The position numbers and the translations under genes were made by a program. A stretch of DNA of 27,944 nt from a virus (Duplodnaviria > Caudoviricetes), in the IMG/VR virus record IMGVR_UViG_3300016476_000735, positions 1-27,944 of that record. One strand, written 5' to 3'. The notes beneath the pieces were generated by a model. It was not told where the DNA came from and did no database searches. It worked only from the letters and a program-made list of their open reading frames with translations. Below, piece by piece: positions 2,217 to 27,381 of this stretch. How positions within the stretch are numbered: the first letter of the stretch is position 1; the number at the start of each line of letters is the position of its first letter.

Positions 2217-2792
2217 ATGTTAGATGGATTACCAATGAGTAGTTTAAGAGTCGATCAAAGGCGGCACTTAAAATTCGGCGGCGTTTTCTTAAAAGATAAA
2301 CCAGATAGCTTTATTGAATGGGCTATAGAAAACTTCAATGAAAAAGATCGAGAAGTAATGATTGAGGAACGCAAATATAGAATCAATCATAAAATTTGGC
2401 AACGAGAAAACACAACAGAAGATCAGCAAAATCGCCTACATGAAACTAACATTAAACTGTTCCTGCGAGATAAAGGCATAACAAAAAGAATTCTAGAGCA
2501 ACATCCAAGGCCCAGTGATGTTGCTCTGTTAGTAGATATACAACGCAGTGATGCTTATCAATATTTCACCAAAGATGAAATAGTTAAATTTAACTGTATT
2601 AGAGCAAGAGTAGCAGCCATGCGTGAAATCAGTGAATTTGAATTCAAAGTCTTGGAAAAGTTCTTGCTAAATGCAGATAGAATAATGAGCAGACGGCAAC
2701 CAAAGAACAAAAAGAAAAACCGACATGCGAGATGGAAAGATAAACAGGCCGCTCGCAATAAATTAAAAAACAAATATAAAGCTCAGGCATAA
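2217..2792 (+). CDS. Hypothetical protein with basic C-terminus, possibly nucleic-acid binding
   Basis: 191 aa; AGGAG RBS; LKFGGVFLKDKPDSFIEWA resembles the FG..L.D.P.SY..W module; K/R-rich tail. Confidence 0.7.
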   Translation: MLDGLPMSSLRVDQRRHLKFGGVFLKDKPDSFIEWAIENFNEKDREVMIEERKYRINHKIWQRENTTEDQQNRLHETNIKLFLRDKGITKRILEQHPRPSDVALLVDIQRSDAYQYFTKDEIVKFNCIRARVAAMREISEFEFKVLEKFLLNADRIMSRRQPKNKKKNRHARWKDKQAARNKLKNKYKAQA

Positions 2793-2804
2793 ACTTAGGC
2801 ATAA

Positions 2805-3242
2805 TATAGGCTCGGTGGCACCGCACCTCATCAAAACAGGAAAATCTCTATCAAGATAATGACGGTAAAGGGTAGAGCATTGCACAGTCATTTATAGCGG
2901 CTGTGAACAACAATGGCGCCGGAGTAGGGAATTCACCATTCCCGGGAGTTACATAGCCAAGCGTCTCCCGCTGAAAAGTTACTGCTATAAATCCTATAGG
3001 TGATATTTGCAATAGCAATTATTCTATTGGAGCCCGGATTGCAAATATGATTTTTTTTAACGGAAATCATATTTGCCGTCCTACGGCTCCAATTGCAGTA
3101 GTTCTTATCGCAAATATAATTTATTTCATCTGTAATCTATAATTGCTCTTTGAAAGAAATAAAAAAGAAACTAATTGCAAAACGAAATCAATAAACGAAG
3201 CGCAAGCGTAGTGATTGATGAGTTTTAAGTCCTTTAGGACTT
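2805..3242 (+). other. Highly structured non-coding region (candidate ncRNA and/or replication origin)
   Basis: ~510-bp intergenic gap with many inverted repeats, including a perfect 13-bp GCAAATATGATTT/AAATCATATTTGC and a 9-bp loop-receptor pair ATTTATAGC/GCTATAAAT. Confidence 0.65.
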
Positions 3243-3283
3243 GTAAATCCCCTATCATTAAGCACTAATATATTTCTTCCTGA

Positions 3284-3289
3284 TAAATA
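3284..3289 (+). promoter_or_regulatory. T4-like late promoter core TAAATA in the loop of an RBS-sequestering hairpin (3271-3308)
   Basis: TATTTC-TTCCT gataaataaatgta AGGAG-at-GAAATG. Confidence 0.6.
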
Positions 3290-3305
3290 AATGTAAGGAG
3301 ATGAA

Positions 3306-3611
3306 ATGGCTTACATACCAGGAGAAATAGAGCTGTTCAGTGAACTTTGGACTATTAGAGCCGGCACTGACAAAGAACTCACAAATAATCACGGCATGTG
3401 TTATTCAGATAGCTGTGAAATTATTTTTAATCCCAATACCACTTGGGATAATATATTGCATACAGTTTTACATGAACTCATACATGCAATAGAAACCAAA
3501 ACACATCTGGACCTAACTGAACGACAAGTAGATGTCATGGCTTTGGGTCTGATACATTTGTTTAGACAAAATCCCCAATTACTGGAGTTATTTGATGCCC
3601 AACAGAGGTAA
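3306..3611 (+). CDS. Small HExxH zinc metallopeptidase-like protein
   Basis: TVLHELIHAIE motif with a downstream conserved E (TERQV); AAGGAG RBS. Confidence 0.7.
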   Translation: MAYIPGEIELFSELWTIRAGTDKELTNNHGMCYSDSCEIIFNPNTTWDNILHTVLHELIHAIETKTHLDLTERQVDVMALGLIHLFRQNPQLLELFDAQQR

Positions 3612-3918: not shown

Positions 3919-4123
3919 ATATAGACTAGCAGATTATCGCTATAGAGAATTAGAACCAAATCTTGCACATGCCATTAGACATATTGTGCGTAGATACAGC
4001 GACAGCAATGGCTACGACCATGAATTTGAATATTACTGGGCCAAGTTCTCAGATGCAAGTTGGTTATTGGCTGTTCTAGACAACTCAGAAGCCTGTGAGG
4101 TATTATACAATGGCAAGGCCTAA
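3911..4123 (+). CDS. Hypothetical protein
   Basis: 70 aa; overlaps both neighbours in operon style. Confidence 0.7.
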   Translation: MTEYRLADYRYRELEPNLAHAIRHIVRRYSDSNGYDHEFEYYWAKFSDASWLLAVLDNSEACEVLYNGKA

Positions 4124-4370
4124 GCCAGATATACTACTAAGAGATCTACAAGCAAAAGAAACCATGGAGATCCTGGCCAGCCCAGGTATTTGGTTTGTGC
4201 TTTATCAAGGTAGACCTATAGCTATAACTAGACGATCATGGACAGCTCAAGGAGAACTGGTAAAGTATCCACGCACAGGTTTTAACAATCCTGCACATGC
4301 TTATAAGCTAGCAGAGAGACTGAATCAAAGATTCATGACAAACCAGTTTACCGTTTTGGAGGTTAAATAA
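4110..4370 (+). CDS. Conserved phage hypothetical protein (MARPKP...GIW...F.NP.HA..LA..LN type)
   Basis: ATG 4110 with GAGG RBS; resembles from memory a family common in large uncultured aquatic phages. Confidence 0.75.
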   Translation: MARPKPDILLRDLQAKETMEILASPGIWFVLYQGRPIAITRRSWTAQGELVKYPRTGFNNPAHAYKLAERLNQRFMTNQFTVLEVK

Positions 4371-4601
4371 ATGAGATATGGACAAATAAATGTTTATGGG
4401 GGATCGGCACCCCAACAACCATGGCCCAATACTGAAACAACACCAGTTATAGTCAAAGAAGATTATCAACTACAAGTGACAAAAACTTGGATTGGTGATC
4501 AATGGCAAATTAAAATAGATAGAACCATTGGCACAGAACTATATCAATTAGAACTTTACTTGTCAGGAGATGAGTTAACAAAATTTAAGGCTGCATTATG
4601 A
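4371..4601 (+). CDS. Hypothetical protein
   Basis: 76 aa; GGAGG RBS; abuts the upstream stop. Confidence 0.7.
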   Translation: MRYGQINVYGGSAPQQPWPNTETTPVIVKEDYQLQVTKTWIGDQWQIKIDRTIGTELYQLELYLSGDELTKFKAAL

Positions 4602-4741
4602 AACTTCCAGAAACCATAGCCACAGAACATGAACTACTCAAACAAAGAGTTAGATTTTATACACTGATCAATGGTTATCTTAGCGCCGGCTTTTTTGCAA
4701 TATCGGCGTATATAATTTACCGTATAGTAGGATTATTTTAA
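4598..4741 (+). CDS. Small membrane protein (47 aa, absent from ORF track)
   Basis: MKLPETIATEHELLKQRVRFYTLINGYLSAGFFAISAYIIYRIVGLF; ATGA overlap upstream, TAATG overlap with TerS; C-terminal hydrophobic helix. Confidence 0.7.
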   Translation: MKLPETIATEHELLKQRVRFYTLINGYLSAGFFAISAYIIYRIVGLF

Positions 4742-5169
4742 TGCATAGTATAGAATATCCAGAAAGAAAACAACCCAAGATTGGAGAGAAAATAGTTACG
4801 GGATTAATTATCGGCCGTGACAAAAAAGTAATTCCACAGAGTGAAGTAGAACACTTAGCCAGTCTAGGCTGCACAGATAGAGATATAGCACAGTATTATG
4901 CTATCAGTGAATCAACATTACGATACAATTTTAGCTCCGAACTGGTAAAAGGGAGACATCAACTAAAAACCAGTTTGAGACAAAAGCAAATTCAAGTGGC
5001 ACTTGAAGGCAACCCAACAATGCTTATATGGTTAGGTCGTAACATATTAAGTCAAAACGAAAACGGCATTATGAGCGATGATAAGCGTCCATTACCCTGG
5101 ACTGACGACGAGGATGATGAAGTTATCACAGATGATGAAGTCACAGATGATATAGATGCCGCTGAGTAA
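4741..5169 (+). CDS. terS: Terminase small subunit
   Basis: HTH (GCTDRDIAQYYAISESTL), GNPTMLIWLGRNILSQ motif, acidic tail; directly upstream of TerL. Confidence 0.8.
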   Translation: MHSIEYPERKQPKIGEKIVTGLIIGRDKKVIPQSEVEHLASLGCTDRDIAQYYAISESTLRYNFSSELVKGRHQLKTSLRQKQIQVALEGNPTMLIWLGRNILSQNENGIMSDDKRPLPWTDDEDDEVITDDEVTDDIDAAE

Positions 5170-6400
5170 TCCACAAAAGATAATTTGTGAGGCACCTTTT
5201 AGATTCCGTGTAGCAGTATGCGGTCGTCGTTTTGGCAAGACTCATGTAGCAATACGAGAACTCGCGAGGTTTGCATCACAGCCCGATAAGACTTGCTGGT
5301 ATCTAACAGGAAGCAGGCAGCAGGCCAAGTCCTTGGTATGGACCAAGTTAAAGAAAAAGTTGAGAAAACTTAATTGGATTCAAACTACCAATGAAAGTGA
5401 GCTCAGCATTGAACTGATTAATGGTAGTAAAATCTGTCTTAAGAGTGCAGAGCAAGGTGATAATCTGCGTGGTGAAAGTTTAACATTCTTAGTCATTGAC
5501 GAATTTGCAGACATAGATCTAGATGAGATATGGAATCAAATACTTAGACCCGCACTCAGCGATCAAAAAGGTCATGCACTTTTTTTGGGGACGCCTAAGG
5601 CTGGTAATCAAACTGCCCGTGACTTATACGACAATGCATTAGTTAAAAAGAATTGGGTTAGCTTTAGTTTTACTACAATCGACGGTGGATTCGTCGATGA
5701 GGAAGAAATAGCACAAGCCCGGCAAGATTTAAGTCCTAAGGTATTTGCACAAGAATATCTTGCATCATGGGAAAACTTTGCCGGTGTTATCATGTATGAT
5801 TTCGGCGAACATAATATTAAGGAAGTTAAACCTCCCACTGCAAATGAACCATTAGTAGTAGGCATGGACTTTAACATCACGCCCTTGGTTTGCCAGATAG
5901 GCCGACACACAAAAACTGGCATTGAAATATTCGATGAAATAGTATTAGAAAATTCAAATACTAATGAAGTCTCCATGGAGTTACGAAATCGCTATCCTAC
6001 TCAGCCTATTACTGTGTTTCCGGATCCTGCGGGAGGTGCAAGAAAAACCAGTGCCAATGGTAATACAGACATTAAGATTCTAGAAATGGCTGGTTTTACT
6101 ACACGATATCATCGCAGTCATCCATTAGTTAAAGATAGAATAAATGCTTGTAATAGTTTATTCTTTAAGAGAGAAGATGGATCTACGCGATTTACAATAG
6201 ATCCCAAATGCAAATATACAATTAAGAGTCTTAAGAATTGGACCTATAAAGAAGGCACAATGATTCCCTCTAAGAATGAAGGACAAGACTGGAGCCACGC
6301 TTGCGATAGCCTAGGCTATCTCATTGAATATTTGTTCCCTATACAGAAACCTATAGTAGCAAAAGTGCCGCAACGATTCGGCCACGCTTTGGCTGCATAA
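5156..6400 (+). CDS. terL: Terminase large subunit
   Basis: Walker A CGRRFGKT, Walker B LVIDE, GTP motif, FAQEYLA, nuclease motifs GMDFN and HACDSLGY. Confidence 0.96.
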   Translation: MPLSNPQKIICEAPFRFRVAVCGRRFGKTHVAIRELARFASQPDKTCWYLTGSRQQAKSLVWTKLKKKLRKLNWIQTTNESELSIELINGSKICLKSAEQGDNLRGESLTFLVIDEFADIDLDEIWNQILRPALSDQKGHALFLGTPKAGNQTARDLYDNALVKKNWVSFSFTTIDGGFVDEEEIAQARQDLSPKVFAQEYLASWENFAGVIMYDFGEHNIKEVKPPTANEPLVVGMDFNITPLVCQIGRHTKTGIEIFDEIVLENSNTNEVSMELRNRYPTQPITVFPDPAGGARKTSANGNTDIKILEMAGFTTRYHRSHPLVKDRINACNSLFFKREDGSTRFTIDPKCKYTIKSLKNWTYKEGTMIPSKNEGQDWSHACDSLGYLIEYLFPIQKPIVAKVPQRFGHALAA

Positions 6401-27275: not shown

Positions 27276-27305
27276 GGCCACACTTTAACCGGTGTGGCTT
27301 TTTTT
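27276..27305 (+). terminator. Rho-independent terminator (+)
   Basis: GGCCACAC-TTTAACCG-GTGTGGCT followed by a T run. Confidence 0.85.
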
Positions 27306-27309
27306 AACC

Positions 27310-27340
27310 AAAAAAAAAGTCCCAGTGGAAACGCTGGGAC
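27310..27340 (-). terminator. Rho-independent terminator (-)
   Basis: A9 run then GTCCCAG...CTGGGAC stem, downstream of the minus-strand genes. Confidence 0.8.
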
Positions 27341-27381
27341 CAGGTCTGAGGATAAAAAGCCTAATGGCCTTTCTATATTAC

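Follow-up and report, generated by a model that had tools for sequence, protein, structure and literature searches.

A doubly pseudoknotted RNA in a probable replication origin module of small tailed phages

The window analysed here, a virus record of 27,944 nt that is 96% complete and comes from a small uncultured tailed phage, carries a structured element that comparison with homologues confirms as real, and as larger than the preliminary description had it (~2797-3120 instead of 2805-2998). The element, which we call class A RNA, is likely to be transcribed. We consider it quite probable that the locus of ~1 kb around it is a phage replication origin module, and for the RNA itself we lean, by analogy, towards the role of primer in an RNA-based origin of the ColE1 RNA II kind, with no kinship in sequence. 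A wider proposal, which we advance with some reserve, is that small tailed phages swap protein modules for at least three dissimilar RNA origins, of which class A would be a primer RNA with two pseudoknots and a protein partner of its own; one of its loops might then pin the displaced DNA strand and so build an R-loop. If true, these origins would form a new replicon family, initiated by RNA and found in phages rather than in plasmids. Three RNAs that trade places with primase-helicase and polymerase genes would allow initiation by RNA and by protein to be compared in nature, would suggest how small phages with no recognisable replication genes copy their DNA, and would give otherwise orphan RNA motifs a testable function.

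Terminase, portal, scaffold, capsid and tail-completion genes were identified in the window, and no polymerase, primase or helicase was found among the 24 scanned of its 94 listed open reading frames (16 of them also compared with Pfam). The element lies in a gap of 513 nt between the gene at 2217-2792 (gene 2217) and gene 3306. It has no tRNA neighbours, and the terminase genes follow 1.6 kb downstream of it. The GC skew of the window is positive nearly everywhere and shows no origin inflection. Among sequencing runs, the single one that contains every word of the window is a freshwater metagenome, possibly its source; no RNA run was among those listed, which speaks neither for nor against transcription.

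Structure of the element

The helices and the neighbouring features are collected in Table 1. The stems of the preliminary description were found where it had placed them, and P2, P3 and P4 covary among the homologues. Its CGGGAG/CTCCCG stem (2943-2970) is retained as an invariant core of 5 bp, P5, while neighbouring helices compete for the bases of the flanking pair C2943/G2970. The closing stem that it considered possible, TATAGG/CCTATA (2805/2993), finds little support: as read by eye, only the window and L025 have it complete, G-U pairs allowed, and in the remaining six full copies it is shortened or missing. A folded RNA of about 200 nt and of unknown class had been proposed; the folding and the want of an Rfam family were borne out, and the length was extended by a second long-range pairing (PK2) and a 3' rod, both of which had been missed.

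The tetraloop of P6 reads GAAA or GTAA across the eight full copies. The rod has an energy of -52 to -58 kcal/mol in all nine copies, and when the strands of its closing helix were exchanged among the copies only one of 40320 permutations was equally good. Its 3' arm contains the partner strand of PK2. In the local fold this strand has an unpaired probability of merely 0.00-0.49, and PK2 and the closed rod are therefore alternative folds, which suggests a co-transcriptional switch. At the 5' end the AGGCA motif occurs one to four times per homologue in the scanned stretch. In most homologues a TAA(A/G)TA box stands ahead of the repeats, and several have one directly before the element. The upstream open reading frame stops before the element in 8/8 copies.

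Table 1. Features of the element and its surroundings. Positions are those of the window except in the rows for class B and class C loci; P, paired helix; PK, long-range pairing.
Feature	Position	Strand	Remarks
Gene 2217	2217-2792	+	product basic (pI 10.0), almost all-helical, 191 aa
Three AGGC(A/T) repeats, 11-12 nt apart	2785-2812	+	RNA 5' end; candidate start region or sites of protein binding
Class A RNA, the entire structured element	2797-3120	+	~325 nt, predicted ends; alignments of 8 and 7 copies
5' domain	2809-2920	+	closing stem, triloop hairpin, A-rich linker, P2, P3
Closing stem of 5' domain, GGC/GCC	2809-2811 / 2918-2920	+	
Triloop hairpin, then A-rich linker	2814-2822	+	
P2, CTCTATC/GGTAGAG	2846-2852 / 2871-2877	+	5/7 pairs change on both sides, 100% paired
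PK2 strand in P2 loop	2861-2869	+	partner 3072-3080
P3, CATTG-CACAGTC/GGCTGTG + CAATG	2878-2889 / 2899-2905 + 2911-2915	+	outer part: 3/5 pairs change on both sides
PK1 loop (P3 loop), ATTTATAGC	2890-2898	+	partner 2984-2992
P4, GGGAAT/ATTCCC	2927-2932 / 2938-2943	+	5/6 pairs change on both sides
P5, GGGAG/CTCCC	2944-2948 / 2965-2969	+	stem invariant; 16-nt loop nearly invariant
P6, GNRA-tetraloop hairpin	2970-2979	+	2/3 pairs change on both sides
PK1 receptor strand, GCTATAAAT	2984-2992	+	partner 2890-2898
3' rod, long imperfect hairpin, ~120 nt	3003-3117	+	T-rich apical loop 3051-3058
AGCG hairpin, core AACGAAGCG-nn-AGCGTAGT (3194-3212)	3187-3219	+	covarying stem; candidate signal
Palindrome AAGTCC-TTTA-GGACTT	3227-3242		follows the hairpin in most loci of classes A and B
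Class B loci	L007 (~2985-3350), L147, L151, L154, L158, L159, L161, L195-L198, L201, L202, L210, L217		
Class C loci	L192, L207, L208, L216; ~5470-5770		
[AC]TAAATA boxes	1623, 1827, 2192, 3283, 6397, 7906, 10994	+	7 sites

Covariation and folding

Homologues were found on nine contigs of related 28-32 kb phages, eight of them with full-length copies, by way of gene 2217 in metagenome contigs (L024, L025), the downstream hairpin core and the pattern of the P5 loop. The alignment for covariation, one of the checks that the preliminary description had named, was made with seven copies (L176 omitted): both partners differ in 34 of 71 pairs, where slid registers give 5-15, and 83.9% of the cells pair, against 33-46%. 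The full copies amount to about five lineages, and the counts of pair changes and permutations given here take no account of this relatedness.

The complementarity between the 9-nt loop and its receptor, noted earlier in the window, proved to be maintained through changing sequences. PK1 is a helix of 9-11 contiguous bp in seven of the eight full copies, with six different sequences, and of 5 bp in L174; in L025 one base is missing on each side. The cognate duplexes have a mean energy of -9.8 kcal/mol against -3.5 for swapped partners, 6 of 40320 permutations are equally good, and a copy's own partner is the best one in five cases out of eight. A perfect 9-nt partner would be expected 0.003 times by chance in 341 nt. 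PK2 has all nine pairs in five copies and eight of nine in the other three, with three compensatory columns, and 72 of 40320 permutations did as well in the swap test. Both pairings were judged by the registers of the individual sequences rather than by the columns of the MAFFT alignment; MAFFT misregisters them in divergent copies, so that the alignment rows understate their pairing.

As a whole the element folds with z between -2.8 and -8.4 on the plus strand in 8/8 copies (40 shuffles each), and the stretch 2795-3010 taken alone does no better than shuffled sequences (z +0.45 on the plus and -0.14 on the minus strand). In two of the eight copies, one of them the window, the fold of the minus strand is at least as good as that of the plus strand. 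The conserved G-U pairs in P2, P6 and PK2, together with the GNRA loops, point to an RNA of the plus strand.

The Rfam search, likewise named as a check, gave nothing over the element at gathering score with the 4227 families of Rfam 15 (window, L007, L024, L025 and seven further loci), and no ribozyme or intron matched at E<=1 in the scanned loci. ARRPOF, PAGEV and GEBRO, which we take to be Rfam families, had no match in these scans. BLASTn against 50,697 phage records returned short chance matches only, none of them in the RNA core, and the gene-2217 family and class B (described below) had no BLAST match in phage records. Searches for gene 2217 in viral contigs with a single protein and with nine sequences yielded no confirmed locus. 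The P5 pattern hit 13 stretches, which by eye divide into six real and seven chance cases, and had no hit in GTDB genomes; the contigs of four small-share sequencing runs held close variants only. A 14-mer from P1 was also tried as a probe and rejected, its 120 loci including no homologue (best nhmmer E 0.63).

Exchange of slot contents among related phages

The place of the element in the genome, which we call the slot, was compared in 40 loci, with the gene-3306 family as anchor; these are 38 of a set of 39, L009 being left out, together with L012 and L015. The slot holds a gene-free structured region in 17 loci and large open reading frames in 18, is unclear in one and too short in four. 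The structured regions comprise four of class A, nine of class B and four of class C, counts to be read with several near-duplicate loci, with less than 900 nt upstream in 5 of the 17, and with class C having been defined by eye and post hoc. The 18 coding slots carry primase/helicase-type genes (8), a PolA-like family (7) or phrog_2467 (3). No slot among the 40 has both an RNA and a protein module. In seven RNA-bearing records that are 95-100% complete, neither tblastn with 22 slot proteins (E<=0.01) nor a search with four profiles (E<=0.05) gave a match, and none of the protein modules showed up in them. PHROG scans of 30 further proteins found methylases, homing-endonuclease-like proteins and one AAA ATPase, the last in G001 (phrog_1250, with a weak clamp-loader match).

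Class B is a different structured RNA of ~400 nt that occupies this slot too and is likewise followed by the AGCG hairpin; 13 of its 74 predicted pairs covary in four sequences. Class C is a third one, of ~270 nt, whose 3' end is a conserved G5-7-A-G3-4 tract. Neither has an Rfam match or a constant upstream gene. The tract of class C resembles the G-run of ColE1, which presumably stands just before the ColE1 origin, and to our mind it is reminiscent of the primer signals of ColE1 and of mitochondrial CSB II. The profiles of classes A and C miss each other's records, and that of class B found none of seven class A or C records; homology among the three classes is thus unsupported.

In the protein-bearing slots, the PolA-like family (285-583 aa) was found in L191, L014, L213, L214, L220, L221 (partial) and L223. 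The L191 member (4062-5174), the one of the seven from which the fold assignment derives, is predicted to adopt the fold of family-A DNA polymerases (pLDDT 94; for Foldseek, E 1e-4 and prob 1.0). The family is unannotated (451 homologues of the L191 protein), with what is predicted to be a minimal form of this fold, and stands by itself as a replication module; in L191 a direct repeat of ~50 bp follows. The phrog_2467 proteins have Walker-like motifs by eye. In L211 many direct and inverted CCCTACAC repeats at ~5360-5650 follow a prim-pol/helicase pair in the same slot and look like an iteron-type origin.

When the slot contents are laid on a terminase tree of 29 rows (nine loci with no terminase left out), class A requires at least four changes. 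The window belongs to a terminase clade of seven with support 100/100 that contains five slot types, and its closest terminase relatives have four other slot types. The swapping of contents across this tree, taken with the mutual exclusion of RNA and protein modules, argues for an exchangeable replication cassette.

The AGCG hairpin stands ~55-75 nt beyond the rod. It follows all eight full copies of class A, in L174 as a variant, and also the class B RNAs. Its core is present in 3/3 complete class A relatives and in none of 13 records with no class A or B RNA (7 of the 13 at least 90% complete), nor in any of five partial ones. The hairpin is a candidate single-strand initiation or primosome signal, by analogy with ColE1.

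A primer model and its alternatives

If class A RNA is a primer, host RNA polymerase would start near 2785-2810 or read through gene 2217. The 5' half would fold into a compact core locked by PK1, a step that the covariation supports, and the P2 loop would then capture 3072-3080, either on the nascent RNA or on displaced non-template DNA; here the pairing is supported and the role conjectural. This capture would stop the rod from closing, and the 3' part would stay hybridised to the template as an R-loop. The end of the RNA might be extended by host DNA polymerase into the leading strand, and strand displacement would expose the AGCG hairpin, where the host primosome could load. The gene-2217 protein, which co-occurs with the RNA, may be an accessory factor that binds either the RNA or the AGGCA repeats.

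Several of our observations weigh against this model. The hairpin does not resemble ColE1 significantly: two copies are equalled in score by 278 and 240 of 300 shuffled sequences, and a third copy scores better on another ColE1 site; BLAST of the hairpin region against plasmids gave no meaningful match (the search for the RNA was confined to phages). The core is moreover nonspecific, 12 of 23 exact matches lying in unrelated contexts. A G-tract is missing from class A, and we found for it neither a conserved promoter nor a partner of an antisense RNA of the RNA I type: a minus-strand sigma-70-like site at 3045-3018 (9/12) is at chance level (4 found against 7.1 expected), and the complementarity of a small RNA at 1635-1775 to the main RNA is not above chance. 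The folding of the minus strand in two copies and the AAA ATPase of G001 also count against the primer model.

The linkage to gene 2217 also fits a protein initiator. A member of this family, for which 46 homologues are known, lies directly upstream of the RNA in 8/8 full-length copies. Of the 40 slot loci three have it, all of class A; those of class B or C, and those with a protein module, do not. The slot could then be an origin at which the gene-2217 protein is an initiator of a new type that binds the AGGCA repeats or the RNA, the latter serving as a scaffold or copy-control switch in a ribonucleoprotein. The basic pI of the protein, the spacing of the repeats by about one helical turn and the invariant 16-nt loop of P5, which resembles a binding site, are in line with this. 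The protein matches no Rep, primase or nuclease fold, though: it has no Pfam or PHROG family above cut-off, and its AlphaFold model (mean pLDDT 78) has no Foldseek match at E<=0.001 (best, uncharacterised phage proteins at E 0.015), a best VIA Z of 5.4 and no usable Atlas match. Class B and C RNAs fill the slot with no constant upstream gene, and RNA alone is thus apparently sufficient. We regard the initiator as improbable overall and describe the protein as a candidate accessory or initiator protein.

Still less probable in our estimation is that the folded molecule is single-stranded DNA, arising at origin unwinding or as the structure of a single-strand origin. Similar plasmid motifs may act in this way, according to the part of PMC5737381 available to us, and either strand can form the long rod and the AGCG hairpin, the minus strand being as stable in two of the eight copies; the G-U pairs and GNRA tetraloops of the plus strand, together with the TAA(A/G)TA boxes right before the element in several homologues, speak for RNA. 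We would give as little credit to a free-standing ribozyme or trans-acting RNA (self-cleaving, splicing, antitoxin or decoy) that merely travels with the origin. The element's compact fold with several pseudoknots, GNRA loops and invariant unpaired bases would suit a ribozyme, one of the three functions offered in the preliminary description, but the absence of Rfam ribozyme and intron matches leaves that option with no support; no interrupted gene, tandem repeats or variable guide was seen, and the mutual exclusion with replication genes would go unexplained. The second of these functions, a packaging RNA of the pRNA kind, and with it a 5' leader that regulates the downstream genes, appears very improbable, despite the nearness of the terminase genes and the loop-loop pairing. 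A packaging role is disfavoured by relatives whose large terminase is 75-78% identical and which have no element; class A is also scattered over the terminase tree and missing from the nearest terminase relatives of the window. As for a leader, gene 3306 has its own TAAATA box, persists under any slot content and is not the next gene in L174. The third function, a replication primer RNA, is the one that the slot analysis favours.

Relation to known systems

ColE1 replication starts from an RNA primer that RNase H processes and whose extension by Pol I exposes n'-pas, and the order of RNA, gap and hairpin in the phage locus parallels that of RNA II, ori and pas as outlined in the parts of PMC3167613 and PMC5778457 at hand. 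Like ColE1/pMB1, so far as it is described in the consulted parts of PMC8683028 and PMC3167613, the locus has no recognised Rep enzyme, a long structured noncoding region with alternative folds, a hairpin signal after the RNA and an adjoining gene for a small helical protein. It differs in lying in a tailed phage, in the missing G-tract of class A, in its length of ~325 nt against ~550, in its two long-range pairings and in a protein that is not recognisably Rop. There is no Rfam match to RNA I in the window and no sequence likeness that would indicate homology to ColE1.

According to the portion of PMC3035462 (2010) consulted, only two plasmid families were then known to replicate by an RNA start without Rep, and such replicons arose convergently more than once. 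The MRB (marine RNA-based) replicons of Vibrionaceae plasmids (pB1067) are likened to our locus by their description there as a Rep-less ori that encodes RNA; they differ in being plasmid-borne and in having an antisense RNA I of ~68 nt. The nearest catalogued motifs in role are ARRPOF, PAGEV and GEBRO, structured motifs of 223-349 nt in replication regions, which differ from the element in being plasmid-borne; ARRPOF lies in a region that replicates with no rep gene (excerpts of PMC5737381). The IMG/VR survey of Fremin 2023 lists 8495 candidate structured RNA models of 29-151 nt; the one supplementary spreadsheet covered has no match to the element, and a fragment of it could be among these candidates (PMC10690425, in part).

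In the literature consulted, in which subscription papers are barely represented, we found no description of an RNA-primed phage origin or of this motif. The pRNA of phi29 is a phage-encoded structured RNA with loop-loop pairing, and the same likeness extends, on partial accounts, to ROOL and GOLLD. Unlike these, the element has no Rfam match, no tRNA neighbours and no tie to the packaging module.

Further observations in the window

A second small structured element lies at 1623-1778 on the plus strand, with a TAAATA box, a hairpin, a multi-stem domain and a terminator-like stem with a T-run; it is conserved at 647-802 of L024 with paired changes and has no Rfam match. Upstream of it, the adjacent genes at 296-1117 and 1098-1613 share a near-identical N-terminal stretch of ~22 aa, and the latter gene matches homing-endonuclease families. 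On the minus strand at 27304-27375 there is a terminator-like hairpin with an Rfam match to suhB/mmgR of 28.9 bits, below the cut-off of 41.

The motif [AC]TAAATA occurs seven times on the plus strand and once on the minus strand of the window. Such boxes resemble late promoters of the T4 type; as we saw no gene for a sigma factor, the phages might depend on a helper of the T4 kind. Four of the seven plus-strand sites stand 16-24 nt before an ATG, where 4% would be expected per site, and the strand bias is the same in three relatives.
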